Assembly: GCA_965237525.1 (NCBI GenBank)
Contig: CBDEFO010000008.1
Coordinates: 1,912,494 to 1,976,493, forward strand
Source: Candidatus Latescibacterota bacterium
GTDB lineage: Bacteria; Latescibacterota; CBDEFO01
DNA length: 64,000 bases
Direction: 5' to 3'
Shown here: in pieces, positions 9,744 to 32,255 of the stretch
Numbering within the stretch: position 1 is the stretch's first letter
Layout: the number at the start of each line of letters is the position of its first letter
Translations under genes and position numbers: made by a program
Notes under the pieces: generated by a model
What the model was told of the DNA's origin: nothing
The model's input: the letters and a program-made list of their open reading frames with translations, nothing else
Database searches by the model: none

Positions 9744-9763
9744 AAGAGATAGTAGCCCCCGCT

Positions 9764-14591: not shown

Positions 14592-14636
14592 AGACTTGAA
14601 ACCTTTAGAACCATCTGCGTAAAAGTGTTAGCTTAG

Positions 14637-16156
14637 AAGCCTTGTGAAATAGTTATGTCCCAGGCAGCGTCTGAAGCGCCGATTATGGGTCAAAGAGTAG
14701 CATATCGTATCGTTTTGCTGTGGAATAAGCAAAATAGTCTTATCAGAGTTCTGGTCAGCAAGGAATAGGAGCTGTTTGAAGAACAGGATGCACTGTCTTT
14801 GACAGACAGGGCACACATAGACGCTTTCCCCCTTCTTATGAAAGATACAAGCCTCTTGAGATTCTGTACTGTTGCAACAAGATTCAACTGTTCATTCAGT
14901 GAGGCTGGTCCTCTGTAACGGGCTCGTCCCATACCGTGTTGTTGCCTGGCTTCAGCAAAGATATGTTCACTGCGTTTACGGAGTCTCCGGGAGAGTTTGT
15001 AGTCAGCTGTTAATGAGATAGACCGTGCATGATTTCTGGCTTTTGCCTCTCGCACTTTTCTATCCCGTTCGGCCTGAATATGTGCTGAATTTGTCTTGTT
15101 TTTCCATGTAGGAATCGGTTCAATCTTCTCATCGGCTCGCAGAGGAATATGGGGTATGATTCCCCGGTCAAGTACATCAGCGATAAAATTACCAGAACCG
15201 TAACCGGTATCGGCACTAAGTGTCTGAATGTCTTTGGGCATGGTGTATGTTTCAAGGTCATCTACCATCTTAAGGGCACTTTCGGGCTCTGCTGTCCCTG
15301 TCGCCTGCGTGCCCTGAGTCTCAAGGATTACTCTGCTTTTTGTGTCGATCAGATCATGGCCCATAAACGAGAGAAAAGCCCCTTTGCCCTTCGATTTGCT
15401 GTATAAGCGCGCGTCGGGGTCTGTAGTCGAACGGTGTGTTTGGTTCGTCCACTTTTCACCATGAAAGTCTTTATCCTGAGGATGCCCGGACCTACCCTTT
15501 GTCTTATCACCTTCAAAACCGATTCCCTTGAGATAATCATCAAGAGAAACAGGGGGTTCTATCGGCTCAATACTTTTCACTGAAGCATCAGCTTGTATCT
15601 GAGTGCCGTCGACACTAAGGTGTTTACCGCTCACAACACCGACATCTATGCAACACTGGACTACCTGACGCATTATCCGTTCAAACAACCCACTGGATGC
15701 CCACTTGTGATTGCGAAGCTTGTTGATCGTGCTCCTATCCGGAACCGCATCATCAAATGTCTGATGACAAAACAACCGATATGCCGCATGCATCCCCACT
15801 TCCTGACAGAGCCGATTCTCACTCAAATTATACAGATAGCCAATAAGGATCATTCGAACAACTAATTCAGGATCAATACCGGGTCTGCCATTGTCAGGGC
15901 AATAACAATCTGATACAACGTCTCGTACAAATGAAAAATCAACTGCCTCATCAATCTGACGAAGGATATGATCCTCGGGAACTAAATCCTCCATCTGAAA
16001 ATAGTGAAACATCGGATTTGTCTGTTCCTGCTTTTGTGGGGTCATTGTTTCCTCCATATATAATATTATCAATAACATAATATAATACATCGGAGCTGCT
16101 TTATCAATGCTTGTTCTATACTACTTTCTGATATCTAAGGGTTTTTCACAAGGCTT
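14637..16156 (-). mobile_element. Insertion sequence copy 3
   Basis: Same TIRs. TSD TTAG at 14633-14636 and 16157-16160. Inserted ~45 bp downstream of the sigma-54 activator stop. Confidence 0.85.
14690..16090 (-). CDS. DDE transposase
   Basis: 466-aa ORF, near-identical to the other two copies. Confidence 0.8.
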   Translation of the reverse strand: MYYIMLLIILYMEETMTPQKQEQTNPMFHYFQMEDLVPEDHILRQIDEAVDFSFVRDVVSDCYCPDNGRPGIDPELVVRMILIGYLYNLSENRLCQEVGMHAAYRLFCHQTFDDAVPDRSTINKLRNHKWASSGLFERIMRQVVQCCIDVGVVSGKHLSVDGTQIQADASVKSIEPIEPPVSLDDYLKGIGFEGDKTKGRSGHPQDKDFHGEKWTNQTHRSTTDPDARLYSKSKGKGAFLSFMGHDLIDTKSRVILETQGTQATGTAEPESALKMVDDLETYTMPKDIQTLSADTGYGSGNFIADVLDRGIIPHIPLRADEKIEPIPTWKNKTNSAHIQAERDRKVREAKARNHARSISLTADYKLSRRLRKRSEHIFAEARQQHGMGRARYRGPASLNEQLNLVATVQNLKRLVSFIRRGKASMCALSVKDSASCSSNSSYSLLTRTLIRLFCLFHSKTIRYATL

Positions 16157-16437
16157 TTAGTGTCTTGGAAAATATTACTACCTTCGAATCGGGATTGGTG
16201 GCTGCTTAATAGAATTGGTGACGGTTGGTGACCGTTTGCATAGAACTTTTGAAAAAACAAATTTTTTGAAAATGTGAACAGTTTATAGTAAAAGGTCACC
16301 AAGGTCACCAAGTGAGCATTTTGGTCCATCATATTACCTTGATCTTTAACTCTTTGGAGCTCTTGATCTCTAACGTCTTGTAAATCTAAATTTCGATCTT
16401 CTGCTGACCCACCAAGGCTCAAATTAGAAAATCCATT

Positions 16438-17691
16438 TTATCTTACTTCCCCCCACTCAACCTGATTGTATATACGGTTGAACTCCTGGCTGCCGTCGTT
16501 CTCGATGACTTCCAGAGTAACACCGGGCACAAAGAGAGGTAGGTTGCCCGCGTAGAACGCCTGCTGATAATCCGACTCTCTTGTGAAAGCCCATGTCCTG
16601 GCCTCTTCTCTCCTTGAGCGGGGGGGCCAGCAGATCCTCAGCACCCGGCGCTTTTTGAGGTATTCGTCCTGTGGAGTCGGCGCACCGTCATCCACTCTGT
16701 ACTTTTCGAGAGCGTCCTGGTCTATTTCCACACCCAGACCGGGCGCTTCGGGGCAGCGGATATAGCCGTCCTTAACCTCAAGGCGCTCCTTCAACAGGTC
16801 GTCTTCAAAGAGTTCGTGACAGGTGATAGCTGGCCACCGGGCGTGCGAGAGCACTGCGCCAAGATGGACTGTGAAGGCTGTCATAATTCCTGAGCCGACC
16901 ATCTGGAGCCAGAAGGATTTATTGGACACGGCAGCAATAGTCCCCTGTCGGATGACGTTACCAGCAGAGCCGCTGATGACGAAGCCGTCGCAGACCTCCT
17001 CTTTGAGCGCGGTCATGATAGGCGGCGTGCCGAAGTGCAGACTGATAGGATGGCTGATCTGACTTCTGATCTGTCTGTAGCCTTCCACATCGGTCTGGGG
17101 TATTGGCGACTCGAAGATAGCCACGTTCTCCCTTTTTTCGAGTTCTTTTAATACAGGAAGGGCGTTGCCCGCGTTGAGGAGGAAGCCGTTGAAGTCCACA
17201 TCTAACTTGAAGCTTTCAGGAACGACCTTTGCAATAGCGTCCACCTGCTGGATGATGTCGAACCAGGGCCGGGCCTTCAGCTTGAAAGAAGTATATCCGA
17301 GCCGCTGGGCCTCCTCTGCCTCCTGTGCCCAGTCCTCTGGGGGCATATCTATAGCCCACCAGGAAATGGGACACCAGTCTCGAACTTTCGACCCGATGAG
17401 CCGATATACGGGCACGTTCTCCTGTCTTCCTACGGCGTCCAGGATCGCTATTTGAACTGCGGGATTAATAGAATCGTCCCACAGAAGCTCAAACGGGTTC
17501 CTCGCGACGAGATCCTGTGAATCCGCACCTTGACCATGCATTTCACCGTAGCCGATAACACCGGTGTCCATTCTTACCCGAAAGACGCACACGCGCTCCC
17601 CGTGAGTGCTGGCGCGGTGCATATGGCGCTCTGTCCGCGGGGAGGCAAAGGGCAGATCCAAAGTGAACATCTCAATCTGGTCGATCTTCAT
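16438..17691 (-). CDS. Enolase-superfamily enzyme (mandelate racemase/muconate lactonizing enzyme-like) with ~100-aa C-terminal extension
   Basis: Capping plus TIM-barrel domains with KLDVDFNG-type metal ligand region. Paralogous to 59489..60748. Confidence 0.7.
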   Translation of the reverse strand: MKIDQIEMFTLDLPFASPRTERHMHRASTHGERVCVFRVRMDTGVIGYGEMHGQGADSQDLVARNPFELLWDDSINPAVQIAILDAVGRQENVPVYRLIGSKVRDWCPISWWAIDMPPEDWAQEAEEAQRLGYTSFKLKARPWFDIIQQVDAIAKVVPESFKLDVDFNGFLLNAGNALPVLKELEKRENVAIFESPIPQTDVEGYRQIRSQISHPISLHFGTPPIMTALKEEVCDGFVISGSAGNVIRQGTIAAVSNKSFWLQMVGSGIMTAFTVHLGAVLSHARWPAITCHELFEDDLLKERLEVKDGYIRCPEAPGLGVEIDQDALEKYRVDDGAPTPQDEYLKKRRVLRICWPPRSRREEARTWAFTRESDYQQAFYAGNLPLFVPGVTLEVIENDGSQEFNRIYNQVEWGEVR

Positions 17692-17803
17692 GTTTGTCTC
17701 TTTCCAAATATGTAGTTTCTATGACTCTAGAATCTCATAAGGGCTCTTTGTGGGCCATTCAGGAGTGAGTCCCAGGAACATTATGCTTCCTACAAGATGT
17801 CTC

Positions 17804-18154
17804 CTACAAGATGCCTCCTACAATAAGGAGCCTGAGTTTTTCTTCCAGGTCGGTATTGTAAACTCTGTGTTCTACGCCTTCTTCATTGTACAGGGCGTCT
17901 CCCCCTTCAAATTCGTGCTTTTGACCTCCCGACTCTATGGTTCCCCGCCCCTGAAGGACATAGTATATCTCTTCACAGTTATGCCTGTGCAGTGGGGAAT
18001 GCTCCCCGGGGTCTATCTCCACTATTCCTGCGATCAGCGTCTTGGTATCAACTCCCGTTTCGGGATAGATGAGTTTCCAGTCTTTCACTCCCTTTCTCGC
18101 CTCCATCGGAGCGCCCGATACAAACTCTGATCTCTTGACCACCACTCTGGACAT
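17804..18154 (-). CDS. Cupin-domain protein
   Basis: Start ATG at 18154 with AGGAGG 7 nt upstream. Cupin motifs G.HSPLHRH...EEIYYVL.G. The longer annotated ORF runs through a REP copy and is probably an artefact. Confidence 0.7.
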   Translation of the reverse strand: MSRVVVKRSEFVSGAPMEARKGVKDWKLIYPETGVDTKTLIAGIVEIDPGEHSPLHRHNCEEIYYVLQGRGTIESGGQKHEFEGGDALYNEEGVEHRVYNTDLEEKLRLLIVGGIL

Positions 18155-18313
18155 ATGAATACCTCCTGCAGCAATCGTGCGGGGTGGGACGAGGTGTCCG
18201 TGCTTGGGGACGAGGTGCCCGTGCCTACTGGGCGAACAGCTGGGTGCGCCCAAGGGGCGAGCGGACCTCGCCCCTACATTCTGTCTCCTATAACCGAGAT
18301 CGCTTCGAGATGA

Positions 18314-18335
18314 ACCCCCGATTGTTTCTATCGGG
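18314..18335. repeat. REP-like palindrome (forward)
   Basis: CCCCCGATTGTTTCTATCGGGG. Confidence 0.6.
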
Positions 18336-18497
18336 GACGTGTGTCTGCCCCTGGGACGACCACTTCGTGGTTTGTTGCCTCCACTCCCCGGCAAAGCTCC
18401 CACGGCGCCTTGCCCCTAAATTCAATCTGCTGCCTTTAAGATGGCCTGAGCAATCTCGGAGGGGATAGGATGTATCCCCTGCCTACCTCTGATTGCA

Positions 18498-18520
18498 TCT
18501 CCGATTGAATCTATGGCGGG
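18498..18520. repeat. Degenerate REP-like copy
   Basis: CTCCGATTGAATCTATGGCGGG. An adjacent hairpin GGGGATAGGATGTATCCCC lies at 18461-18480. Confidence 0.4.
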
Positions 18521-18530
18521 CTACTGTGTA

Positions 18531-19709
18531 CTAACCCTGCGGATCGACCCAGCGTCCGTCTGATTTGATGAGCTTGACGAGCTCTTCCACGCCCTTCTCC
18601 TGGTCCACGCCGGGCTTTATGCACTCTATCCCCCGGTAGAGGGCTATCTGACCACCGGCCTTCCCGACGTAGCCGTAGTCAGCGCCGGCCATCTCGCCCG
18701 GGCCGTTAACGATGCAGCCCATAACCGCAATGTCCAGACCGACGAGGTGATCTGTCGCCGCCCTGACCTTGGCCAGGACCTCCTCCAGGTCAAATTTGGT
18801 GCGGCCACAGGAGGGGCAGGCGATGAACTCGACCTTCGTGCGACGCAAACCCAGAGCTTGAAGAATGTCGTAGCAGACAGGGATCTCGTTGACCGGGTCT
18901 TCCGTAAGAGAGACACGGATAGTGTCTCCGATGCCCTCCCAGAGGAGTGTGCCGATTCCGGCTGTGGACTTGATCCGGGCGTACTGGCCGTCGCCGGCCT
19001 CTGTGACGCCCAAATGGAGAGGGTAATCCATCCCTTCCTCGTCCATGCGTTGCACCATGAGCCGGTTGGCCTGGATCATCACGGGCACGCGAGACGCCTT
19101 CAGAGAAATTACCAGATTCCCGTAATCGTGTCTTTCACAGATCCGTACAAACTCCAGCGCCGACTCGACCATCCCCTCCGGTGTATCGCCGTAGGTGACC
19201 ATCATGCGGTCTGAAAGAGAGCCGTGATTTACGCCTATGCGCATGGCTATATCTCGCTCTTTGCACGCCTCTATGACAGGCTTCATCTCCTCCTGGATGG
19301 AGCCGACGGCCTCCCGGAATTCCTCTTGTGAGTACTCTTCGCCCTCTGTGCGCTTTTGATAGACAAAGAGGCCGGGGTTGACCCGCACCTTGTCCACATG
19401 CTTTGCGGCCTCAAGTGCGATCCGGGAGCCCTGGTGATGAACGTCTGCCACAAGGGGCACCTGGATGCCTATTCGCGTCAGTTCCTCCCTGATTCGACCG
19501 AGGCACTCTGCGTCCCTTAAAGTCGGAGTCGTGACCCGGACGATCTCACAACCGGCTTCGTAAAGGCGGACTATGGATTTTACACAGGCATCTATATTTC
19601 GGGTATCGTCTGTTATCATAGATTGAACGACAATAGGATTATGGCCGCCGATGACGACATCTCCGACCGCCACCTCGCGGGTCCTGCGGCGAGCATAAAG
19701 AGTTTCCAT
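18531..19709 (-). CDS. ispG: 4-hydroxy-3-methylbut-2-enyl diphosphate synthase (flavodoxin), IspG/GcpE
   Basis: 392-aa ORF with IspG N-terminal TIM-barrel ([11 protein letters not shown]) and C-terminal 4Fe-4S domain (CPSCGR...C). Confidence 0.9.
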
Positions 19710-19922
19710 TGACTCTGCACTCCTTCGTATCGAACACCAACGAAATTGCCACCGGCAATTTGGGCGAAGGGGCGCATGCCCCGAAGCCGTTAGTGCTCAG
19801 TTATGCACTGGCAGCCCCCTTAACCCTTAACAGCAGATGTCCTCAAAGAGAAACCATAAAACAGACGGTATACTTTTCGAAATAGTAAAAAAGGCTTGTT
19901 TCAAGACGTATGATCTGCCCTT

Positions 19923-20759
19923 CTATAAAGCTTTGAGAACGTAGTACAAATTCTCCAATTCTCCACTTATGTGAGTATCCATCGACACGAATCTGTAGCG
20001 CTCATCATATATTGCCGCTAGTTTAAACCTGCCAGACTTATGAACAAGACTTGTGAAATCTTCAAAAAACCAAAGCCGTAGCGTATGGCGCTCCTCTAAT
20101 CGAATCTCGTTGTCGTGATCATTGATTTCCATTCTGCAAATCTGGTAACTGATCTTTTTCCGCTTATCTTCTCTTTCAATACGCCAGGCTGTTTTTACGC
20201 GAATCCCATCCCTTTCCATGCTCCATTCGTCTCCGCCGTAGGATTCCGTATCATAAGCACAGCTAAGGTGAAGGATGTAGATTCCATTACTTTTCAGTGA
20301 TTCACCTGTATTGACCAAGTGTGAAAGCATATCCTTATCCGAGAGGAGGTATCCTAAACTATTGATTGAATTGAGAGCCGCATCAAAGGTTGCCTCGAAT
20401 CTTGCTGACTTCATGTCTTCTCTTTGAACGGTTGCCACACTCTGCAATCCTGCTTCAGCGATCTTCTTTTGAGCATAGGCGACCATTCGTGGACTACTAT
20501 CATATCCTGTTACATGATATCCATATTTGGGCAGACTCCTGAGAAAACGGCCTGTACCGCATGCAGGCTCCAAGATGTGCTTCACTTCAAAGGGAACATA
20601 TCTCTTGAAGAGAGTCCCCAAGAACTCAATCTCTTGAGAGATGTCCCAGAAGAAGGCGATATCGTAAATCTCTGGGAGGCTGTATAATTTTGCCTGCATC
20701 GTCCTTTTTTTCCTGTGCTCAAGGAAATCACTCAAAAAGAAAATCTTGGTGATCAACAA
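19923..20759 (-). CDS. Class I SAM-dependent methyltransferase
   Basis: Motif I LEPACGTGRFL. Start may be the internal M (MQAKLY, ~20699). Confidence 0.7.
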   Translation of the reverse strand: MLITKIFFLSDFLEHRKKRTMQAKLYSLPEIYDIAFFWDISQEIEFLGTLFKRYVPFEVKHILEPACGTGRFLRSLPKYGYHVTGYDSSPRMVAYAQKKIAEAGLQSVATVQREDMKSARFEATFDAALNSINSLGYLLSDKDMLSHLVNTGESLKSNGIYILHLSCAYDTESYGGDEWSMERDGIRVKTAWRIEREDKRKKISYQICRMEINDHDNEIRLEERHTLRLWFFEDFTSLVHKSGRFKLAAIYDERYRFVSMDTHISGELENLYYVLKAL

Positions 20760-20802
20760 GCAAATCTTGAGCTTCTCGCATGTCTTTACTGCATGTGCAC
20801 AA

Positions 20803-21375
20803 CTATTTGATAGCTGACATCAGTTTCCTTACAGCCTCACCTCTGTGGCTGATCTTGTTCTTTAGACTTCGATCCATCTGCGCCAGCGTTAGTCCCAGCT
20901 CGGGTATCAAGAATAGTGGATCGTACCCGAATCCACTCGTTCCTTTTCGTTTTTCTATTATTATCCCCTCCAAGGTCCCCTCTGCCGTCGCCGTATCTCC
21001 AGAAGGATAACAGAGCGCAACCACGCACTTAAACTGAGCTGTCCTTTCCTTTAAGGGCACGTCTTTGATCATTTGCAATAGCTTCGCGTTGTTTTCATCG
21101 TCTGTGGCATCTTCTCCCGCAAAGCGGGAGGACATAACGCCGGGCGCACCGCACAGGGCGTCCACCTCAAGCCCCGAATCGTCAGCCAACGCGGGCATAT
21201 TCAGATGCTCAGATAGGGCCTTTGCCTTCTTTATAGCGTTCTCTTTGAAAGTAGCGCCGTCCTCCTCTATCTGGGGGATGCCCGAAAAATCGGCCAGGGA
21301 AAGTATATCGCACCGGGAGCCCAAAATCTGCGCGATCTCCCCAATCTTTTCTCTATTTTTTGTCGCCAAAACGAG
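20803..21375 (-). CDS. rdgB: Non-canonical purine NTP pyrophosphatase RdgB/HAM1
   Basis: …RLVLATKNREKIGEI… …PALADDSGLEVDAL.GAPGV.S.R… …GFGYDPLF… collinear with E. coli RdgB. The annotated 5' extension (to 21444) translates a REP copy, so the true start is probably a TTG/GTG just downstream of it. Confidence 0.75.
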   Translation of the reverse strand, partial: LVLATKNREKIGEIAQILGSRCDILSLADFSGIPQIEEDGATFKENAIKKAKALSEHLNMPALADDSGLEVDALCGAPGVMSSRFAGEDATDDENNAKLLQMIKDVPLKERTAQFKCVVALCYPSGDTATAEGTLEGIIIEKRKGTSGFGYDPLFLIPELGLTLAQMDRSLKNKISHRGEAVRKLMSAIK

Positions 21376-21388
21376 ACGGAGCCGCCCT

Positions 21389-21421
21389 CCCCGATTGCTT
21401 CTATCGGGGATCAATCGTGGG
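21389..21421. repeat. REP-like palindrome (forward) plus half-repeat
   Basis: CCCCGATTGCTTCTATCGGGGATCAATCGTGGG. Confidence 0.6.
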
Positions 21422-21568
21422 TCGACCTTTTTTCCTTTCTCCATAGAGAATCCAATCAGAAATGGGCGTTTCTGGCGTATTGAGAATGGTTCGCCTTAAA
21501 TGACAGACGGGGGACGTAATCCCCCGTCTTCTTTCCTTTTGCGGTCTATAGAAATTAGGCGCGAAGAT

Positions 21569-21847
21569 TCAAATGTGACGTTCTTCGCTAAAATAGGTCG
21601 CTGATGAACTTTCATGATGGTCCAGCGTGATCAATCCATCGGTCGCCGGAATTTTAAGGTGAATTATCCAGCCCTCGATCTTCTTGCCTCTGATGTGTAC
21701 AGTCTTACGTTCCTTTTTTAATACCACGGCGTCGTCCCTGAGCGCTGCCATGGTCCTATCATCCTTGTCGTCTATACAGAAATAGGAATGAATCTTCCAG
21801 TCTCTTATATTCTCATTGGCTTCGGCGTTATCAGACATAGCAGACAC
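21569..21847 (-). CDS. Hypothetical small protein
   Basis: 92-aa ORF, no recognisable motif. Confidence 0.35.
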   Translation of the reverse strand: MSAMSDNAEANENIRDWKIHSYFCIDDKDDRTMAALRDDAVVLKKERKTVHIRGKKIEGWIIHLKIPATDGLITLDHHESSSATYFSEERHI

Positions 21848-22095
21848 CTCTTTTCAGAACTGCGCTGGAGTTTGAATCTCCTGTAAAAACAGCTCATTAT
21901 CGTTCAAACTATCCTTTTAATCGTCATCATCAACCGCGATGGCCTCTCTTTAGGGGCCTGTGCTTTAAGATTTGCCCAAACGAAAGCCCCTTGTGCCGAT
22001 TACGCAAGGCGGCTCTCGCCCCAGTCATTCACCGCTGCCCTTACCGGCGCAATTCCATTTAAAGAAAGTCACGTTGTCACCTGCCGCTGTCTATT

Positions 22096-22782
22096 TTATA
22101 GGCCGATAGAACGTGCGCTCTTGCTGAATCCCAGAAGTAGCTTACTTAACGCAGGATGTTCAAATATCGTAATATTTATTAGAGCAGAAATCGCTGCCTT
22201 GGCATCCAGGATCTCTGACAGGAGTTCTGGGAGTTTTTCTTCTCCTTCCTCCCAGATTTCCTTTATTTCTTCGTAAACTTCCCGTCTTATATCAGCAGAA
22301 GAATGTCCATCTAACTTGGCGCTTAAATAGTTCACAATTCCTTGAAACTCATCTCTATCCAACCAGATACCGTGACAATCTGGGCACCAATCGATAATGA
22401 TAGTAGAATCCCCAAAATTAGTAGATACTAATTTGACTCCCTCGCATTCTGGGCATACACGGTTTGATGGAATTGCATTGGCCTTCTCGATAGCCTCAAC
22501 TTCGTCATCCATCCAGCTTAACGTGCGCCATGAGCCTTTCTGAGCTTTGTCCTTCAGTTTTCGTAGTTCATCCCTATCCAGGAAAATGCCTTTGCAATAG
22601 GGGCAGCCATCTATCTCCATGCCATAGACTGTGTATAGATTAAGAGTAGTTTTACATACTGGACATATTTTTGTAGTCTGTGCTGTGAATTTAGCGTTTT
22701 CTATCGGAGGAACTGTACTGCCCCCCAGAAAAGCGACATCAATTAAGCAACTTGGGGTAGCAGATAAAATTGTTTTCTCCAC
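22096..22782 (-). CDS. Tandem TFIIB-type zinc-ribbon (zf-TFIIB, C-x2-C…C-x2-C-G-x-[FW]LD) protein
   Basis: Two C..C…C..CKG.FLDRDEL / C.DCHGIWLDRDEF units. The first 21 codons (22719..22782) lie inside the IS3 remnant, so the start is uncertain or IS-provided. Confidence 0.55.
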   Translation of the reverse strand: MEKTILSATPSCLIDVAFLGGSTVPPIENAKFTAQTTKICPVCKTTLNLYTVYGMEIDGCPYCKGIFLDRDELRKLKDKAQKGSWRTLSWMDDEVEAIEKANAIPSNRVCPECEGVKLVSTNFGDSTIIIDWCPDCHGIWLDRDEFQGIVNYLSAKLDGHSSADIRREVYEEIKEIWEEGEEKLPELLSEILDAKAAISALINITIFEHPALSKLLLGFSKSARSIGL

Positions 22783-23626
22783 TCTTCCGGGGTCTTGTAT
22801 CCCAGAGATGAATGAAGCCAGTTCTTGTTGTAATTATCGATCCACTGAGATATGATCTTCTCAGCTTGTTCAAAGGGCTTGAAATTGTGAAGCCACACAC
22901 ACTCCTGCTTGAGGGTCCTGAAAAAACGTTCTATGACCCCGTTCCAATCGGCCTTTACGCTCGGAATATATTCTTGACGAATGTCCCAATATTCGGTACT
23001 TGCCAAATAGGCCCGAGCCAAAAAGATGGAACCATTGTCAGAGCGCAAAGTGAGACCCTGGGGGACAGCCTCCTTGGAGGTGTATCGAGAGATCACGGCC
23101 CGATCCAGGGCATCTATGGCCTCCAACGCCCTTCCTCTTTTACTAAGACGATACCCAGGAACCTCCCGGCTTCCGTTGTCCACCACCGCAATAAGAGGAC
23201 ACCAACCATCTTTTCCACAGTAAATCTTTGTCAAGTCACTCGACCACAAACTGTCGGGACTATCCACCACAGAACGCTTCTGGGCAACCTGTGGCCCCTT
23301 TCTCCCGGGGTCCCCGATTGATTCTATCGGGGATTCCACAGCTTACACTGCCACCCCTTAAGCTTCATTATCCTATGAACCTTCTTGACGTTGCCACATT
23401 CCCCTTCCTTGAAACGAAGATGCGCCCAAACCCGCCTGTGACCAAATGCCTCTTCTTGGTCCAGTATCCCTCGAATACGAAAGGCAAGCTCCTCATCTAT
23501 CACAGGCTCTTTAACAGAAGAACTGACACCTCTATCCCTAAACCTATACAGAGTCGAACGATGAAAACCCAAAGCCAAAGCTACCACCTTGCGGGAATAG
23601 CCTCGACCCCAAAACCGCCCACTCAA
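22743..23626 (-). pseudogene. IS3 OrfB (DDE integrase) split by a REP-like insertion
   Basis: 100-aa N-terminal fragment (…HRIMKLKGWQCKLWNPR*) and 198-aa C-terminal fragment are separated by the REP at 23312..23332. Removing 20 (or 23) nt there fuses them in frame. Confidence 0.75.
23312..23332. repeat. REP-like palindrome (forward) inside IS3 orfB
   Basis: CCCCGATTGATTCTATCGGGG. Confidence 0.7.
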
Positions 23627-23935
23627 GGAAACCGCTTCGTTTTTTTTAGACGGGCTACCTCTTCGAGTATCTCCAACTGGAGCGTCAACTGCCCTACCTT
23701 GCGCTCCAACCGGCTAACCTCTCGCTCCTTCGGATCCTTGCGACCACGCCGAGACTTCAGACTCTCCTGGCCCCCTTCTAAGAAACTATCACTCCAAAGC
23801 ATACGCCTGCGACTGGCTAATTCCATTCTTACGACACACCTCAGATAGATCTGCTCCTCTCAAAAAAGCCAACACAATCTCTCCCTTACGGGTCGCCGTC
23901 CAGCGCTTACCATCTTTCACTTCGGGGCTCGACAC
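23623..23935 (-). pseudogene. IS3 OrfA (HTH + leucine zipper), internally frameshifted
   Basis: GTG start at 23935. HTH part …LRGADLSEVCRKNGISQSQAYALE stops; the zipper part is in the +1 frame (LERKVGQLTLQLEILEEVARLKK). Confidence 0.6.
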
Positions 23936-23983
23936 CTTGACCTCCTTTCTCAAACCCCAATTTGCAAAATATTTGTCGCCCTG

Positions 23984-24478
23984 TCAAGGGGAGCGGTATG
24001 GAACATCTACTTCAAAATCAGTTTGGCTGCTCTTTCTTCTTACTCGTTTATACCAATAAGGCAGGTGTACATTGTTGACGAATTCCGAGAATCCTCTACC
24101 TGTAACAGGCATTATGTTTGTCAGTTCTCTATTTGCTAAATCGAGTTCACCGCCATCTAACCAGAAACCGCCGCAGTTTCTGCAGCGATCCAACACTATA
24201 TCGCTATGATCCAGAAAGAACACCTTATCTAAAATGGTCTCCTCACATCTTGGACATTTTACTGTAACTTCGGAGATGCCTTCAGCCCTATCTTTGGCAT
24301 CTCTGGAGGAGTATTCAATACTTCCAGTTACATGGAAGGCCATCTTGTCTAACTCACCAGCATCCAGCCAAAGACTCCCACAGGCGTCGCAAATATCGTA
24401 AGATATCTGTTTAAGCTGCACAAACTTAGTCTGTACAAGATTGTTGATCATTTCCTCATTACAATTTAAACACTTCAT
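23984..24478 (-). CDS. Tandem TFIIB-type zinc-ribbon protein (paralog of 22096..22782)
   Basis: Two C.NC…C..CGS.WLDAGELDK / CP.C…C.NCGGFWLDGGELD units. Confidence 0.6.
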   Translation of the reverse strand: MKCLNCNEEMINNLVQTKFVQLKQISYDICDACGSLWLDAGELDKMAFHVTGSIEYSSRDAKDRAEGISEVTVKCPRCEETILDKVFFLDHSDIVLDRCRNCGGFWLDGGELDLANRELTNIMPVTGRGFSEFVNNVHLPYWYKRVRRKSSQTDFEVDVPYRSP

Positions 24479-24871
24479 TGCAATATCTCATCCTCTAAAT
24501 CTTCAGGTTTCGTATGTTGTCTTCCACTTTTAATAGAGATCCTTGTATCATACCGTATTGACTGGGTAATGATCTTAACTCTATTTTATCCCTCTGACCT
24601 CCGTGTCTCTAAGGTGAGTAATCCTAACGGTTCAGGGATGCCTCCAAATGTTGAGTCTCTCCAATTTGAAGCTCTTTTTCTGACTTAAATATATGTAATC
24701 TGATCCGTATCCGCAAATATTTTTTGACTATCTATCTGGATTCTTCCTGCATCGCTGTGCCTGGCTTTTTCTATGTTTTTTCATTTTCCCTTTACTTGGA
24801 TTTGATTTTTTGTTATTTTTCTATCAATGCCACATTGTCTTCAATTTCACAATATGAAAACGGAGGTTTGC

Positions 24872-25348
24872 ATGTCAGTTGACTATCCGCAGATGAACCA
24901 CGTCTTCGATAAGCTCTGCATCAGCGACAGCAATTGGGCTTTTGACCTGAATAATCTGAAACGGGAGGGCGTAGAGGCAGTTATCTGTATAACTCGAGAG
25001 TCCCCCGGAGACGGCGTCGAGGACGCAGCTTATCCCGCAGAGTATCTGCACTATCTCAAGGATTATCTGCATTTTCCTATCGAGGACGCTTATCCCCTTC
25101 CCGAATATATAATCTCCAAATCCTTAGATTTCATCGGTGAAAACTTGTCCTCAGGCAGGAATGTCCTTGTCCACTGCACCGGAGGTGCCAGCAGGTCAGT
25201 CGCGCTTGCCCTATGCCATCTTTTTAGAATGGGAATGGGATTCGATGAAGCTCAGCAATTCTTGAAGGCAAAAAGGCCTCAGGCTATCTTTAGAGACGAA
25301 TTGATGTCCTCCATAAAGGAATATTTCAATATTTCCAATATTTCTTAG
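24872..25348 (+). CDS. Dual-specificity (Cys-based) protein phosphatase, copy 1
   Basis: P-loop VHCTGGASRS (C-x5-R). GGAGG 6-7 nt upstream of ATG. Confidence 0.75.
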   Translation: MSVDYPQMNHVFDKLCISDSNWAFDLNNLKREGVEAVICITRESPGDGVEDAAYPAEYLHYLKDYLHFPIEDAYPLPEYIISKSLDFIGENLSSGRNVLVHCTGGASRSVALALCHLFRMGMGFDEAQQFLKAKRPQAIFRDELMSSIKEYFNISNIS

Positions 25349-25586
25349 TATAGTGGGAACGCAGCAGGGTCCCTATTAGGCTTCAGAAAAATCCTTGAAT
25401 TGTCACACCTTGCCCAGAAGCTTTTCTTGACTATCACAGCCATAGTATTTATCAGTATCGTCATGCGCTTGATCTTGACTTGTTATACCTTTTTCAGCTT
25501 TCCACTACCTGAATTTGATTTTTTTGTTGTCTTTCTATCAAAGTCATATTATCGTTGATTCCGCCAAGAGGAAAACGGAGGCTCAG

Positions 25587-26054
25587 ATGCCAGTTGCCAA
25601 TCAACCGATGAACCACGTGTTCGATAAGCTGTGCATCAGCAACAGCAAGTGGGCTTTTGACCTGGATAATCTGAAACGTGAGGGCATAGAGGCAATTATC
25701 TGCATAACACGACAATGCCCTGGAGACGGCCTCGAGGACGAATCTTATCCCGCCAGGTATCTCCACTATCTCAGCGACTATCTCCACTTTCCCATCAATG
25801 ACGGCTTTCCGCTTCCGGGACACATTATATCCAAATCCTTGGATTTCATGGAAGAGAACTTATCCTCAGGAAGGAAAGTCCTTGTGCACTGCACTGCCGG
25901 AGCCAGCAGGTCAGTCGCCCTTGTCCTTTGCCACCTTTTAACCCTGGGGATGGGATTCGATGAAGCTCAGCGTTTCTTGGAGGAGAAGCGACCTCAGGCC
26001 GTCTTTTTTGACGAATTGATGTCCTCCGTAAGGCAGTATTTCAACATTTCATAG
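25587..26054 (+). CDS. Dual-specificity protein phosphatase, copy 2 (tandem paralog)
   Basis: VHCTAGASRS P-loop. ~75% aa identity to copy 1. The upstream ~80 bp are also duplicated. Confidence 0.75.
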   Translation: MPVANQPMNHVFDKLCISNSKWAFDLDNLKREGIEAIICITRQCPGDGLEDESYPARYLHYLSDYLHFPINDGFPLPGHIISKSLDFMEENLSSGRKVLVHCTAGASRSVALVLCHLLTLGMGFDEAQRFLEEKRPQAVFFDELMSSVRQYFNIS

Positions 26055-26199
26055 TACAGTCAGAACACGGGCAGGCTCCGACAAGGGTTCGGTAGAATTT
26101 TTGATTCGTCCTACCCATTGCCCAGAAGTTTTTCTTGACTATCACACTTAATTTATCTATCATAAATGGCCTGCACCCATCTGTGAGGCGTCATAGCGT

Positions 26200-26273
26200 G
26201 CCCCCGTAGCTCAGGTGGATAGAGCAAAGGATTCCTAATCCTTGTGTCGCGTGTTCGAGTCGCGCCGGGGGTA
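26200..26273 (+). tRNA. tRNA-Arg (anticodon CCU)
   Basis: Cloverleaf GCCCCCG / D-arm GCTCAGGTGGATAGAGC / anticodon loop TTCCTAA / T-arm GCGTGTTCGAGTCGCGC / acceptor CGGGGGT plus A. CCA not encoded. Confidence 0.8.
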
Positions 26274-26715
26274 CTCTCACTCTACCAAGAAAAGCCCATA
26301 AAATCATAGACTTGCGGGCTTAGTGTATTTGTCGTTATTTTCCATTAAGTCGCAACAATCATTCGCAATTGTCACTTTTTGTCCCCAAATTATTAGCAGA
26401 AACCGACAGGGAGTTTTTCGGTTTCCTCTCCAGAACCCCTAAATCCGGCTTGAGAAACTGGTTCAATTATTCAGAGTCCGGTTTCCTCGCTTCCACCGGC
26501 GATGCCCAACTATCCCTCAACGAGGACTGCGCTATCAACTCATTTTTCGCATAGATCTCTTGTGTACGACGATGCTTTTTCTATTGACAGATCTGGAAGG
26601 TTCCGTACCTTATGAGCTATAGCATAGCGATCTGTCCGCCGTCTCTATGGGGGATAGAGCACTATATGGGGCAGGCGGCATTCCGGGGTGGTTTCCCCCT
26701 GAAAGGAGATTTCCC

Positions 26716-27768
26716 ATGAGTTCGATCAAAAATTCAGATCCGTACAGGCAGCGTAAGCGCGAGGCTACGGAGACCAAAATCCTGGCCACAGCTCCGATTG
26801 ACCCGATCATCTGCAAGGGGTTGGGCAGGCTTTATCCGGTACTGTTCGCTGAAAATGACCATCGCGAAACCCTGCTTGCCCTGATGCCGGGAACAATTTG
26901 CTTGATCAGTCGAGGCCTGGCTCACATTGACGGTGAAATTATGGATGCCAGCAGCGATCTGCTGGTGATCAGCCGGACGGGTGCCGGCTATGAAAACGTG
27001 GACATTGAGGCTGCTACAAAGCGCGGCATCCCCGTGGTCTATGCGCCGTTGCTCGGTGAAGCGGTGGCGGAGGCCACCTTCGCAATGATCTTAGCACTTA
27101 CCAAGCGGTTGTTTTACTGGCACGAATCGTTGATCAGCGGCCAATGGGACCGGAGGATCACCGAGCGTACCGAAGAACTGTACGAAAAAACCATCGGCAT
27201 TGTCGGTCTTGGCAGGATCGGCAGAGAGGTCGCCAAGCGAGCCAAAGCCTTCGGCATGCGAATCGTGGCCCATGATCCGTACGTTGGAAAGGAGCAGGCC
27301 AGTGAACTGCAGGTGGAATTAAAATCTCTTGACGACCTGTTGGAAAGCTCGGACATCGTCACTCTGCACGCTCTGGTCACGCCCGAGACGAGGGCGATGA
27401 TCAACCGCTCGAACATAGTCAGGATAAAGCGAGGCGCTTATCTGGTCAACTTCGGGCGAGGCGCTTTGATTGAGAACCTGGACATTCTGTACGAGGCCCT
27501 GGAAGACGGACGTCTCGCCGGGGTGGGTCTGGACGTGTTCCCGGATGAACCGCCTACCAATCTCGACCATCCGCTCTTTTCACATCCGAATTTCATCGGC
27601 TCCCCGCATATCCTGGCAGCTACCAGCGCCAACGAGGCACGCTGTGCCCGATCGGTCTGCAAAGACGTGACGGCTGTGCTCGGTGGGCAAAGACCCCGGT
27701 GGTGCGTCAATCCAGAAGTGTTCGACTCGCCACAACTGCGTTCACCAGGAAAAGGCCATGTGGGATAA
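26716..27768 (+). CDS. D-isomer-specific 2-hydroxyacid dehydrogenase family (PGDH/GyaR-like)
   Basis: NAD-binding GIVGLGRIGREVA…AFGMRIVAHDP. Catalytic R/E/H arrangement. Confidence 0.75.
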   Translation: MSSIKNSDPYRQRKREATETKILATAPIDPIICKGLGRLYPVLFAENDHRETLLALMPGTICLISRGLAHIDGEIMDASSDLLVISRTGAGYENVDIEAATKRGIPVVYAPLLGEAVAEATFAMILALTKRLFYWHESLISGQWDRRITERTEELYEKTIGIVGLGRIGREVAKRAKAFGMRIVAHDPYVGKEQASELQVELKSLDDLLESSDIVTLHALVTPETRAMINRSNIVRIKRGAYLVNFGRGALIENLDILYEALEDGRLAGVGLDVFPDEPPTNLDHPLFSHPNFIGSPHILAATSANEARCARSVCKDVTAVLGGQRPRWCVNPEVFDSPQLRSPGKGHVG

Positions 27769-29016
27769 GACCGAATACGAAGTTCCGGAATCACAGTTTC
27801 GCCAACGAATCGCGCGCGCTTATGAACTCGCCAGTGAGCATTACCTGAGCGCCGTCGTCGTCTATTCGGCGCCCAGAATCCACCAGTGGACCCAGACCGG
27901 ACACGTGGGATATCTGACCAACTGGTCCAATCTGGATCGAATCACTGACTCGATGGTGGTTGTGAGTCGCGATGCAGAGCCTGTCCTTCTGGTGGCCGGC
28001 GTTGAGTACATGCTGGACCAGATCAGAGAAGTCTCATGGGTCAGCGACGTGCGGTTGGTCAGCTCGCCCGATCCTCGAGCTGTCTCGGCTGCCTTCGACC
28101 CCAGCGTCGGCGGGCAAGAAGCAGCCCGCGGGGCCAGAACCTTCGGCAGCGAGATTAGCCAGATTCTGAAAACCAAGCGTTGCGCTGACAGTTCCATTGG
28201 CATCGCAGGCCTGGATGCCATGCCCGCCGCCATCCACCGGGACCTGGCATCGTGCCTGGACGGCCGCATTGCCGACGTGCCTGATATCGTGTCCCGGCTC
28301 CGTGCGATTAAGACGCCGCAGGAACTGGCGATTCTCAGACAAGTCGCGGCTATCTCTGATCGCTGCTACGAGACCATGATGGAGGTCTTGACCGATGGGA
28401 TGTGGGGCTACGAGCTTAGCGCGGAGATGGACCGCGCTGCCAAGCGCGAAGGCGCTGATCTTGTCTACAATACTGTGCACAGCGCTCCAGGCGGGGACCT
28501 GTCAAGGGGCAAGCTGTCCATCAAGGCCCACGATTGTCGGCTGCGCATAGCGGTGATTACATCAATGTCAATGCCTATGTGGTTTACAAGGGCTATTGGA
28601 TTCAATCAGACCGGGTCGGCACCATCGGCCCAGAGCTGGGATCAACAGCCGCCCGTGCAGTCGAGGCCAATCTCCGCGTGCAGGATGAGGTCCTGGCAGC
28701 GATTAGGCCGGGATTGCCCATCGGCGAGCTGGTGCGTATCGGGGACGAGGTGGCCGAACGGCAGGGCTACCGGATCCAGGGCGGACGAATCGGTCACGGA
28801 CAGGGATTGGATTATTCCGAGCAACCTTTTCTCATCGCAGGCAGTCGCGAAACCCTCAAACCGGGCCACGTGTTTGTCCTGCATGTCTGCCTGGAGCTAC
28901 CCGGCACGAATGTTCTGATCAACCCCATCGCCGACCTGTGTCACGTGACCGAGGATGACGTCGAAGTGCTCAACCGATTTCCTCGCGGGCTCTTTTACTC
29001 TCAGGAGTCGCCATGA
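27758..29016 (+). pseudogene. M24-family metallopeptidase (creatinase/prolidase-like) with internal frameshift
   Basis: N-terminal creatinase-like domain in ORF 27683..28918. C-terminal catalytic half (GDYINVNAYVVYKGYWIQSDRVGTIG … GHGQGLDYSEQP … GHVFVLHVCLE) in the +2 frame from ~28520. Junction lies in a G-rich run (gcggggacctgtcaagggg). Confidence 0.65.
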
Positions 29017-29669
29017 ACGTGAATCCTCTCAAACAGATATGGGAAGCTGGCGTGGCACTTCCAGGACAAGGGTACGTCGAGATGATTCACAACTTTTTGC
29101 ACCAACACTGACCCTTTACAGGCAGCTCTCCTTATCGTGCAGAGCTTTCAATACCCTGGATGGCCTTGAGCGTTTCCTCCACTAGCATATCTCCTATGTT
29201 TGTTTCAAGAGCAGGACTGCCACATATCTCTGCCGTCTGAGCCGAAGTGTAACCCACCGTTAGAATTTCCCGCGATAGGGTCCATATTCTGTGAGATCGT
29301 TGCTACTACCCGGCATAAACAGATTGTCAGTGGGACACCTGATTATCTTGACAAAATTAATGGGATATAAGTAGTCGGGTATCTCTGGCTAAATTAGCCT
29401 CTACCTGTTTCCTGCCGACTGTTTCCGATCTATATAGTCATGTCCAGAGTATTTTCAACTGATCCTTAGATCTTAGATTAGAGCGCAGACTGCTGAGATA
29501 GCTCTGAGGGAATTAGAGGATTCAAGCAGAAGGAGATTGAGATAAGGGACGTATCTTCTGTTGAAATTGAAATCTGGTTTGTGCAGTTAAGGCTCAAAAA
29601 TTACTTGACTAATACCATCATACGATTTAGATTTATACTCTGATATTCAAAAATAGATTGACCCCTACT

Positions 29670-29690
29670 CGCCGATTGAATCTATCGGGG
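29670..29690. repeat. REP-like palindrome (forward)
   Basis: CGCCGATTGAATCTATCGGGG followed by ATAGATC. Confidence 0.6.
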
Positions 29691-29726
29691 ATAGATCAAA
29701 ATTATACTCATAGAACTGGAGGTTAG

Positions 29727-30032
29727 ATGCCCACTTACGAATATGAGTGTGTTGACTGCGGATATCAGTTCGAAGAATTTCAGAGCATAACAGCCGATCC
29801 CATTGATTCCTGTCCCAAATGCGCAGGAAGGGCAAAGAAACTGATAAGCGCCGGAGCAGGATTCTTATTTAAGGGCTCCGGATTCTACGCTACCGATTAC
29901 CGCAGTGAAAGCTACAAAAAAGATGCGAAGAAGGATAAGGGTACTCCTTCCGATTCTGGATCTTCAGGCAAGGAGAAAGATTCTACCTCTAAAGCCAAGG
30001 AGAAAGATTCTACCTCTAAAGAAAGCAATTGA
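29727..30032 (+). CDS. FmdB-family zinc-ribbon protein with low-complexity K/S/D-rich tail
   Basis: MPTYEYECVDCGYQFE…CPKCAG. GGAGG RBS. 27-bp tandem duplication in the tail (KEKDSTSKAKEKDSTSK). Confidence 0.7.
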   Translation: MPTYEYECVDCGYQFEEFQSITADPIDSCPKCAGRAKKLISAGAGFLFKGSGFYATDYRSESYKKDAKKDKGTPSDSGSSGKEKDSTSKAKEKDSTSKESN

Positions 30033-30033
30033 T

Positions 30034-30054
30034 CCCCGATAGATTCAATCGGGG
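30034..30054. repeat. REP-like palindrome (reverse)
   Basis: CCCCGATAGATTCAATCGGGG followed by ATAGATTC. Begins 2 nt after the FmdB stop. Confidence 0.65.
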
Positions 30055-30144
30055 ATAGATTCTCTAAGATGGAAAAATTGTGGAACTGATACGGTGTTTA
30101 GAAGTCTATTTTAGGGTGTTTACTGGTGAAAACCGAGGGAGATT

Positions 30145-30879
30145 ATGAACGTGAAAAGGACGGTAATATCGTTATTCTTTGCAGCCACAGCTCTCTCTGG
30201 GTGCGGTAAATCTCCGGAGGAGCTCTACTCGGAGGCGCTTTCTGCGCAAAAAGATGGCAAAGCGCAAGAGGCAATATCCAAATATGAAAACTTAAGAAGG
30301 GAGTATCCGCAAAGCCAACTGGCTCCAAAGGCTCAATTTATGATAGGCTTGGTGTCGGAAAAAATCCTCAAAGATTACAAGAAAGCCAAGACAGAATATC
30401 AAGAAACGTTGGATAGTTATCCCAATTCGGCAGAGGCGGACAGCGCGGGAATAGCTATAGAGCAGATGGCAATCACTATCTTCTCTGAGGGGCAGAGAGC
30501 ATCTGTCAAACCTGCGTTATTCTCAAAGGCTGAGGAGCTTTTGAACACGTTCCTGGAGCTTTATCCCAATCATTCCTCGTGTGACAGCACACTTTTGACA
30601 CTCGCCAGAATCGCACAGAACAAGGGCAATGCAAAAAAAGCGATCTCAATGTATAATCAGCTTTTGGACAAATATCCCAACAGCAGATTCGGATACCAGT
30701 CCCAGTTTATGATAGCTTTCGTTTACGAAGAGATGTTAAATGATCACGAGAATGCTAAACTGGCCTACCAAAAGGTGATAGACAACTATCCTGACTCGGA
30801 CCTTGCCGACGACGCAGAGGTTATGTTAGCACACATAGGCAAAGATCCGGAGGATTGGATCGATTTTCAGGCTCCTTAA
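30145..30879 (+). CDS. TPR-repeat lipoprotein (YbgF/BamD-like fold)
   Basis: Lipobox LSGC. Repeated A..Y……YP.S..A helical TPR-like units. Confidence 0.55.
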   Translation: MNVKRTVISLFFAATALSGCGKSPEELYSEALSAQKDGKAQEAISKYENLRREYPQSQLAPKAQFMIGLVSEKILKDYKKAKTEYQETLDSYPNSAEADSAGIAIEQMAITIFSEGQRASVKPALFSKAEELLNTFLELYPNHSSCDSTLLTLARIAQNKGNAKKAISMYNQLLDKYPNSRFGYQSQFMIAFVYEEMLNDHENAKLAYQKVIDNYPDSDLADDAEVMLAHIGKDPEDWIDFQAP

Positions 30880-31088
30880 GTTACAAGAAATAGCAAATCT
30901 CATCTAAAGAAAATGGAAGCAGAAAAAAGGATACTATCTCTAGACATTCCCATTCTTACGCATTACAGAAACCGTACCCTCCGAACTGAAGCCATCCCTA
31001 TCACTATAACTCAAGCTGTTTCAGAAAGTCCAAGGGCATTCTTCTGGATGACTCAACTCCTTATGTCGGGACCCTGAAAAGAGTTCTT

Positions 31089-31109
31089 CCCCGATAGATT
31101 CAATGGGGG
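31089..31109. repeat. REP-like palindrome (reverse)
   Basis: CCCCGATAGATTCAATGGGGG. Confidence 0.6.
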
Positions 31110-31257
31110 ATACTTTTTGGGGAGAAAGGATTGAGATAGGCCTAAAGATAGGCCTAGACTGCCCCGTCTTCTTGGAGTCGTCCTACGGAGTCGTCCTACA
31201 TAGTCGGCGTAGCCGAAAGATCAGTCGTTGGAATTCAAAGGGAACGGAGAAAACTGC

Positions 31258-32253
31258 ATGCAGATGGCAGCGGACATAGAGAAGATCAACGAAATGATAA
31301 TGGGTGAAAGCGCCTTTACAGAGAAGATAATCTCCGAGATCGGCAAGATCATAGTCGGACAAGAGCAAATGGTCGAGCGCATCTTGATAGGTCTCCTTTC
31401 GGACGGTCACATCCTTTTGGAGGGGGTCCCGGGTCTGGCCAAGACTTTAACTGTTGTCACTTTAGCAAAGACGATACGGGCTCAGTTTCAAAGGATACAG
31501 TTCACACCCGACCTCCTTCCGGCAGACCTTGTGGGGACAATGATCTACAGTCAGGAGACTGGAAAGTTCAATCCCCAAAAGGGTCCGATATTTGCAAATA
31601 TCATACTTGCCGACGAGGTCAACCGCTCTCCTGCAAAGGTCCAGAGCGCGATGCTCGAATCTATGCAGGAACACCAGGTTACCATAGGGCATAGCACGCA
31701 TCGCCTCCCTGAGCCGTTTATGGTGTTGGCCACGCAAAATCCCATAGAACAGGAGGGTACCTATCCGCTTCCGGAGGCGCAGATAGATAGATTTATGCTC
31801 AAGATAAACATCAGCTATCCTAACAAGACCCAAGAGCGGGAGATTATCGACAGGATGACCTCCGGAAACGACCTGCACGTGAATCCGGTAATAGACCTAC
31901 AGGATATCCTGAAGGCCCGATCTGTGGTAAGCCAGGTTTATATAGACGAGAAGATAAAGGACTATATAGTTGACATCGTCTTTGCAACGAGAGAGCCTGA
32001 AAACTACGGTTTGAACGATCTGTCCGGTTTGATCGAATACGGCTCCTCCCCGAGGGCGTCCATATATCTTGTGTTGGCGTCGAAGGCTCAAGCTTTTTTG
32101 AGGAGACGAGGCTACGTGACTCCTGAAGATGTCAAGGAGGTCGGGATGGATGTCCTGCGCCACAGGGTCATAGTTACCTACGAGGCCGAAGCTGAGGAGA
32201 TAACATCTGAGGACATAATAAAAAGGATATTCGATCACATAGAGGTACCCTAA
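31258..32253 (+). CDS. moxR: MoxR-family AAA+ ATPase
   Basis: Walker A GVPGLAKT. Walker B ILADEVNR. Typical MoxR length. GGAG 7 nt upstream of ATG. Confidence 0.85.
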   Translation: MQMAADIEKINEMIMGESAFTEKIISEIGKIIVGQEQMVERILIGLLSDGHILLEGVPGLAKTLTVVTLAKTIRAQFQRIQFTPDLLPADLVGTMIYSQETGKFNPQKGPIFANIILADEVNRSPAKVQSAMLESMQEHQVTIGHSTHRLPEPFMVLATQNPIEQEGTYPLPEAQIDRFMLKINISYPNKTQEREIIDRMTSGNDLHVNPVIDLQDILKARSVVSQVYIDEKIKDYIVDIVFATREPENYGLNDLSGLIEYGSSPRASIYLVLASKAQAFLRRRGYVTPEDVKEVGMDVLRHRVIVTYEAEAEEITSEDIIKRIFDHIEVP

Positions 32254-32255
32254 AT

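Follow-up and report, generated by a model that had tools for sequence, protein, structure and literature searches.

A short REP-like repeat interrupts orfB, the transposase gene of an IS3-family insertion sequence (IS), in the 64-kb stretch of DNA from Candidatus Latescibacterota analyzed here (the window), and sequence comparison with intact relatives confirms that this repeat copy is a derived insertion. Taken together, the observations are very probably best explained by a single ancestral insertion, after which the repeat spread as a passenger of the IS. There are few direct cases of a REP insertion whose direction is known; in this one the polarity is fixed by the reading frame together with dozens of intact copies, and the exact product, 22 nt in place of 2 nt with no duplication, lends itself to comparison with further pairs of filled and empty sites in the lineage. 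The interest of the case lies in this clean polarity, in a reproducible insertion signature and in the apparent hitchhiking of a repeat on a trans-mobilized IS. A transposase gene was disabled by the repeat, yet the element appears to spread in trans; insertion sequences can act as vehicles for such repeats, and the same repeat family is tolerated in frame within a protein-coding gene. The host phylum, Latescibacterota, is uncultured, and we found no literature on such repeats or IS elements in it.

The interrupted IS3-family element

The ends of the IS were set by full-length alignment to 72 copies in other assemblies (Table 1), and its two termini, CATACCGCTCCCC and TGTACTGCCCCCC, form imperfect terminal inverted repeats with 9 of 13 positions in agreement. 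Several features are those of the IS3 family. The frames of orfA and orfB are offset by -1 at the A8 run, and such a run at the orfA/orfB overlap is the usual IS3-type -1 slippery site; perfect 4-bp duplications surround the window copy and most of the copies in a related genome, OZ252149.1; and the rejoined OrfB has the DDE integrase core (rve) of an IS3-family transposase, with Pfam matches to PF00665 (3e-14), PF13683 (2e-17), PF13333 (4e-9) and PF13276 (6e-9). The orfA product matches HTH_Tnp_1/HTH_28, and intact copies of the IS encode an orfA product of 103 aa and an orfB product of 287 aa. Further copies of the IS were sought within the 64-kb window, where only matches to the repeat core were found.

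Table 1. Coordinates of the IS3-family element, its genes and the inserted repeat in the window.
Feature	Position	Strand	Remarks
IS3-family insertion sequence	22714..24000	-	1287 bp; 1267 bp without the repeat; ends CATACCGCTCCCC..., ...GGGGGGCAGTACA
4-bp target-site duplication of the IS, upstream copy	24001..24004		GAAC on the + strand, GTTC in the orientation of the IS
4-bp target-site duplication of the IS, downstream copy	22710..22713		Based on the same flanks in relatives and on restoration of an ORF
orfA (HTH)	23623..23953	-	Split in the window by an extra T at 23798
A8 run (T8 on the + strand)	23640..23647	-	Overlap of orfA and orfB; read from the sequence
orfB N-terminal fragment, 100 aa, HTH_21	23324..23626	-	Ends at TAG 23324-23326 inside the repeat
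orfB C-terminal fragment, DDE/rve core, 198 aa	22743..23339	-	Apparent GTG start 23337-23339 in native IS sequence
22 nt GTCCCCGATTGATTCTATCGGG (+ strand) in place of native AC	23310..23331	+	Net +20 nt; boundary uncertain by 1-2 nt
21-nt repeat core CCCCGATTGATTCTATCGGGG	23312..23332	+	Stem CCCCGAT/ATCGGGG of 7 bp, loop of 7 nt

A preliminary description of this DNA, made from the window alone, had reported that orfB is split into two pieces, and both the list of open reading frames and the Pfam domains bear this out. On the minus strand, a 100-aa piece ending in KLWNPR and matching HTH_21 is followed by a 198-aa piece that begins MESPIESIGDPGRKGPQV and matches rve, rve_2 and rve_3; the frame of the second piece crosses the repeat as SPIESIG. 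An exact look-up of this 198-aa piece returned no record. The same description had placed both the stop codon and the apparent start inside the repeat: the TAG does lie there, whereas the GTG is 5 nt outside the 21-nt core. In the window only, an extra T (GCTTTGG compared with GCTTGG) also splits orfA, and the contig L004 from ENA, which is 99.6% identical, has an intact orfA of 103 aa. Either a true mutation or an error of sequencing may account for the extra T.

The repeat in orfB is a derived insertion

A scan of species-representative genomes led to a complete chromosome, that of the MAG Candidatus Latescibacterota OZ252149.1 (4.54 Mb), which contains dozens of copies of the IS. Our sample of it covers 896 kb (about 20%), picked around IS copies, and was used together with the 64 kb of the window genome, so that all copy numbers given below are lower bounds. 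Intact copies for comparison came from three further sequences (L001-L003) and from OZ252149.1 (53 copies), with about 90-94% nucleotide identity to the window IS.

Alignment with these intact copies, a check that had been named beforehand, defined the inserted bases. On the coding strand, the sequence is CTGTGGAATC-GT-CCCGGGAG in the intact copies and CTGTGGAATC-CCCGATAGAATCAATCGGGGAC-CCCGGGAG in the window copy (longer right flank, CCCGGGAGAAAG), which means that 22 nt stand in place of the native GT. The net gain of 20 nt is the excess that had previously been deduced from the reading frames. The insertion lies at the junction of the HTH_21 domain and the DDE core, shifts the frame and brings in a TAG at which translation stops. 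There is no target-site duplication; the empty site reads ...AATC GT CCCGGG..., and two native nucleotides were lost. The suggestion that the flanking CCC/CCCC could be a target duplication does not hold, because the conserved repeat core includes the left CCC, and CCCGGG stands only once in the empty site.

When the rejoined OrfB was used as a protein query, intact homologs of 274-287 aa were retrieved at 90-91% identity, along with many others at identities as low as about 40%. At the native junction, which reads ...KLWNRPGRKGPQV..., none of 16 aligned homologs, down to 51% identity, has any extra residue. Since both the intact relatives and the more distant homologs are without the insert, and since the insert breaks the frame, the repeat in orfB is derived, in agreement with the original proposal that it is a real insertion. 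Alternatively, the 20 nt could be native IS sequence that the other copies have lost, or an artefact of assembly. We give this negligible weight: homologs at identities as low as 51% are without the 20 nt, the frame is destroyed, and the inserted sequence matches a genome-wide repeat and is found in identical form in the window, in L004 and in OZ252149.1, assemblies that are independent of each other.

The repeat family

The family to which the insert belongs has the consensus CCCCGATTGAATCTATCGGGG with a conserved loop, TGAATCT, and the copy in orfB has one difference from it, A to T at loop position 11. If up to 3 mismatches are allowed, the window contains 17 repeat sites, where shuffled sequence would be expected to give 0.01. 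In the 896 kb of OZ252149.1, 95 copies lie outside the IS family, and the density is about 0.11-0.27 per kb; most copies are outside long ORFs, and 15 of about 110 copies in the sampled part of that chromosome sit within this IS. Searches of Rfam at gathering thresholds returned no family for the repeat and matched only a tRNA-Sec and one other tRNA.

As single-stranded DNA, the repeat forms a hairpin of -5.9 kcal/mol with a 7-bp stem and a 7-nt loop. The positions at -1 and +1 (Y..R; T..A or C..G) are Watson-Crick paired in 82 of 112 copies, compared with 48 expected, which adds an eighth pair and gives an 8-bp stem. Beyond this, the outer flanks of the core follow only R-Y at -2/-1 and R-Y at +1/+2, that is, R at -2 and Y at +2, and GT...AT, the pair found in the IS, is the second commonest flank pair in the family. 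Of the 112 copies, 9 have the tetranucleotide GTAG/CTAC directly beside the core, and none has CGTC/GACG there. Copies are mostly single: among the 112 there are 10 pairs within 300 nt, 5 of them inverted.

Spread of the repeat-bearing IS

Junctions were counted in the 896 kb of OZ252149.1 and in L001-L004. We found 58 native junctions (AAT-CGTCCC-GGG) and 16 filled ones (AAT-CCCCGATAGAATCAATCGGGGACCCC-GGG), and the filled junctions are all identical. Full-length copies in the OZ252149.1 sample comprise 53 without and 15 with the repeat. The repeat-free copies are largely uniform, as 45 of the 53 are identical to each other with both orfA and orfB intact. The 15 repeat-bearing copies are near-identical over 1288 nt, with mutual differences of at most 3 nt; orfA is intact in them, while orfB is broken three times, into four pieces, with two further 1-nt insertions that all 15 have in common. 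Distinct perfect 4-bp duplications at distinct loci flank 13 of these 15 copies. All 16 inserts have T at loop position 11, a variant found in 20 of 112 repeat copies outside the IS.

The identical filled junctions, the minority loop variant, the near-identity of the copies and the two shared extra insertions point to a single origin, and the parsimonious reading of these sequences is one insertion followed by amplification of the IS. It is also conceivable that G-AC-GA in orfB is a hotspot of recurrent, site-specific insertion and that several IS copies were filled independently. The same target and the same product do occur at an unrelated intergenic site (window 52375, see below), and the presence of the repeat is uncoupled from the backbone haplotype of the IS. 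We nevertheless consider recurrent filling unlikely, because 16 of 16 inserts carry the same minority loop variant and the same flanking bases, and because the near-identity of the 15 copies, their shared indels and their own duplications are the marks of copying by transposition.

Under the preferred reading of a single event, an ancestral IS3-family copy took up 22 nt with a repeat unit in place of 2 nt, and the defective IS, its ends intact, kept transposing. That 13 of the 15 copies have their own 4-bp duplications despite a broken orfB shows that the repeat-bearing IS must have transposed many times after orfB broke, and therefore that transposase was presumably supplied in trans. The obvious source is the intact, repeat-free copies, whose transposase the defective IS would have used in trans.

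A further reading would make the element autonomous, with the interrupted orfB being translated across the repeat by a hop of the ribosomes, skipping 20 nt, from the CCC of AAT CCC CGA TAG to the CCC immediately 3' of the hairpin. Ribosome hopping has precedents in gene 60 of phage T4 and in the mitochondrial 'byp' elements. Formally, the sequence offers what such a hop needs: CCC codons that match at a distance of 23 nt, a take-off codon placed within a hairpin, and a stop after one more codon; in L004 orfA and both pieces of orfB are otherwise intact. However, CCCC/GGGG arms beside the native CCCGGG yield such matching codons as a matter of course, and all 15 amplified repeat-bearing copies have the two further frameshifts in orfB, so orfB is not being maintained in this subfamily. 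Programmed bypass of the gene 60 or byp type was rejected, as the downstream ORF is not kept open in the repeat-bearing copies, and we find continued expression of orfB hardly credible.

History of the copy in the window

A segment of OZ252149.1 (L050) is orthologous to window 18420-33511 at 95.9% identity, with synteny prolonged by L053 and L156, and L004 represents the same locus at 99.6% identity. The flanks and the GTTC duplication are identical in the window, in L004 and in the OZ252149.1 copy chr_2928862. In all three the IS interrupts a Zn-ribbon gene in the same way. In the window this gene is split into 22096-22713 and 24005-24478; removal of the IS and one GTTC gives a single ORF of 366 aa with four Zn-ribbon (PF13453-type) CxxC pairs.

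The shared locus, flanks and duplication place the repeat-bearing IS at this locus before the approximately 4% divergence of the two genomes, and show that the repeat must have come to the window locus as a passenger of the IS. The earlier argument had been that an IS is recently acquired DNA and that the insertion into it is therefore recent, which amounts to a repeat unit jumping into this IS copy after the IS had landed at the locus. The repeat is indeed derived, its family shows recent gain and loss, and the 300 nt around it are 98.3% identical to the repeat-free type. Yet the argument fails for the window copy, as the identical 22-for-2 replacement is found in 15 other copies in OZ252149.1; the insert also stands at the orthologous locus of this 4%-diverged genome, where flanks and GTTC duplication match those of the window. 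Recent insertion in situ is thus most improbable, and arrival as a passenger remains the reading that we follow.

The backbone of the window copy is a mosaic. It differs from the orthologous copy in OZ252149.1 at 72 positions, which fall in blocks: IS positions 71-612 and 734-989 resemble the repeat-free type, while 1-55, 614-691 (repeat included) and 1000-1279 resemble the repeat-bearing type. Such blocks show the signature of gene conversion between IS copies, and the window copy, after its arrival, was patch-converted by repeat-free copies and would also have gained the 1-nt frameshift in orfA. Beside the repeat, the blocks lie nearer to the repeat-free type, from which they differ at 5 of 301 nt. 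With a repeat-free-like backbone beside the repeat, descent must be combined with conversion on both sides; that the repeat was instead gained twice at a hotspot is a small residual possibility.

Gain and loss of repeats at other sites

Orthologous alignment over 37 kb contains 7 repeat sites common to both genomes, 5 found only in the window (9767, 21389, 31089, 46238 and 52375) and 2-3 found only in OZ252149.1. The two genomes, with about 96% identity, disagree at roughly half of their repeat sites, which supports the view that the family is, or recently was, mobile. On this point the preliminary description stands. It had also suggested a look for other repeat insertions in IS copies. Together with the insertion in orfB, insertions in a leader and at a deletion junction mean that relatives of the IS were hit at three different sites at least.

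The leader case is a fragment of a diverged IS relative (L053, around 4790-4850; OZ252149.1 2910167), where a clean 27-nt insertion, GCTTGT plus the core, separates the leader from the ribosome-binding site of orfA. The deletion case is a 545-bp deleted relative (L054 4456-5005 and L035 6-548, with about 85% mutual identity), in which positions ~1-289 are joined to ~1052-1287 and the repeat core is exactly at the deletion junction; the 21-mer in L054 is that of orfB.

At the intergenic site 52375, the empty AAAGCG-AC-GAAGC becomes AAAGCG-GT-CCCCGATTGAGTCTATCGGG-GAAGC. Read on the + strand, orfB shows the same target and the same product, CCCGGG-AC-GATTCC becoming CCCGGG-GT-CCCCGATTGATTCTATCGGG-GATTCC. 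At 31089, C plus a 20-mer replaces a T before GAAG. Single repeat units were inserted at these three sites. No duplication is present at any of them or in the DUF4340 gene described below, and 1-6 target nucleotides were replaced. At 46238 and in L081, direct repeats of flanking sequence are present. A common target motif was sought over ten filled and empty pairs and rejected, as the five insertions lying directly 5' of GA are ambiguous (the core ends in G and is followed by R). Pairs from paralogs at 82-87% identity are too diverged for their boundaries to be defined.

A repeat at 43849-43869 lies in frame within a DUF4340 gene (42717-44192), adding 21 nt and the residues SPIDSIG, and homologs at 35-43% identity are without it. 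The OZ252149.1 ortholog of this gene (P0166; L156 11257-11295) contains a second in-frame insert, 39 nt for 6 (+33), by which AL becomes PSPIASIGDQSGG; the window gene is without it. This 39-nt insert with its borders matches the repeat locus at window 21389, in its L004 form, at 51 of 53 nt, and the flanks ACGGAGcCG and GACCT of this donor locus are homologous to the DUF4340 target.

Two of the differing sites are composite. In window 9646-9801, a tRNA-Sec (9646-9739, 70 bits in Rfam) is followed by a 40-nt composite of GATAGTAGCCCCCGCTCC and the repeat core, and OZ252149.1 has 2 nt instead. At 21385-21425 the window has the composite CCCTCCCCGATTGCTTCTATCGGGGATCAATCGTGGG, while L050 has only a palindrome, CCCGATTAAATCGGGGG, which is short and perfect; 18 inner nucleotides seem to have been looped out there, or never to have been added.

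Possible insertion mechanisms

We looked for a Y1/HUH transposase (RAYT) by motif and phmmer searches and found none among 2507 ORFs of the window and the 896 kb of OZ252149.1; the YafM query for phmmer was an approximate sequence. Insertion may be carried out either by a RAYT-type HUH (histidine-hydrophobic-histidine) endonuclease or by templated repair and template switching. Templated copying accounts no less well than the transposition of fixed units for three observations: the inserts range in length between 18 and 40 nt, a few bases of the target disappear, and the donor flanks are homologous to the DUF4340 target. It also accords with the change of G-AC-GA to G-GT-20mer-GA at two unrelated sites, where the new bases at the outer end of the stem complement the native flank.

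For the IS, the original event would then be a copy-in from another repeat copy, turning G-AC-GA into G-GT-CCCCGATTGAnTCTATCGGG-GA. In such a product the new outer stem bases would pair with the native GA, with no duplication and a few target bases lost. A donor repeat with flanks like those of the IS target (CTCCCGGG, GATTCCAC) was not found in the 896 kb of OZ252149.1 or the 64-kb window. It is a tentative idea, with clearly less than an even chance of being right, that a templated process guided by homology and associated with hairpins, for example template switching or short-patch conversion, copies the repeats in and that no RAYT-type transposase moves them. If true, it would be a distinct spreading route for REP-like repeats, including in frame into genes and into transposons, and transposons would then carry the repeats further.

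Comparison with known repeat systems

The family shares many properties with the REPs and REPINs of Enterobacteria and Pseudomonas, which are short stem-loops (about 21-25 nt) in hundreds of copies per genome, mostly between genes (PMC3116915, PMC3337134, PMC3733652). Here too, insertion leaves no target duplication, copies are often nested in other palindromes and presence varies between close relatives. RAYT-associated REPs have a GTAG or CGTC tetranucleotide at one end (PMC3733652), and inverted doublets, the REPINs, are the replicating unit (PMC3116915). In contrast, no such tag is conserved at the core end of the present family, the units are mostly single, and the inserted segments, of 18-40 nt, sometimes bring donor flanks along; no RAYT was found in 0.96 Mb of the two genomes. 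The element thus behaves as a REP in its short hairpin, its many copies and the lack of duplication, and is without two defining features of the RAYT-associated superfamilies, tag and doublets.

The in-frame copies in the DUF4340 genes make the family similar to the Rickettsia palindromic elements (RPEs), as palindromic repeats in coding DNA. RPEs inside ORFs were reportedly described by Ogata in 2002, and REPs inside ORFs are said to have been covered by Di Nocera in 2013. Both kinds of element are documented within ORFs (PMC3733652). The units here are 21-39 nt, however, whereas RPEs are about 100-150 bp. Also unlike RPEs, the insertion in orfB breaks the frame by its 20 nt and an in-frame TAG, while the DUF4340 inserts (+21 and +33 nt) keep the ORF open.

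With its defective transposase gene, conserved ends, own 4-bp duplications and near-identical copies beside an intact family, the repeat-bearing IS resembles non-autonomous IS derivatives and MITEs that a related transposase mobilizes in trans. It differs from them in that it is full length and its first disabling lesion is the insertion of a repeat, not an internal deletion. IS elements that target REPs were reportedly treated by Tobes and Pareja in 2006. Known examples are IS1397, ISPpu9 and others (PMC3733652, PMC8450116). As in these, an IS and a REP are physically nested here, but in the reverse order: the repeat entered the IS, and the IS itself lies in a Zn-ribbon gene, not in a repeat.

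Other repeats and elements

The exact 21-mer consensus is present on 96 JGI metagenome contigs (L060-L155) of 40-46% G+C, often within other multicopy repeats. The RAYT search described above, applied to these contigs, gave one RAYT-like PF01797 gene at L078 7055-7531 (also in L091), which has a different, GTAG-tagged repeat, GCGGGGGATAAACCCCCGCGCTAC, on either side. A second palindromic family, GTAGACAG...CTGTCTAC, is likewise GTAG-tagged, often adjoins the repeat core and is polymorphic. Its members lie near window 208-290, 46200-46300 and 47560-47640, and a 59-nt member present in OZ252149.1 at the position of window 32254 is absent from the window.

Another element, of about 1.5 kb, has three copies in the window (2351-3878, 10779-12310 and 14632-16159), which are about 87-88% identical to copies in OZ252149.1, and synteny with OZ252149.1 breaks around copies of this element (window 14655-18420). 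Tandem duplications of 9-27 nt also differ between the window and OZ252149.1 (at 25327, 25374, 29181, 29968, 33193 and 37005) and are unrelated to the repeat family.
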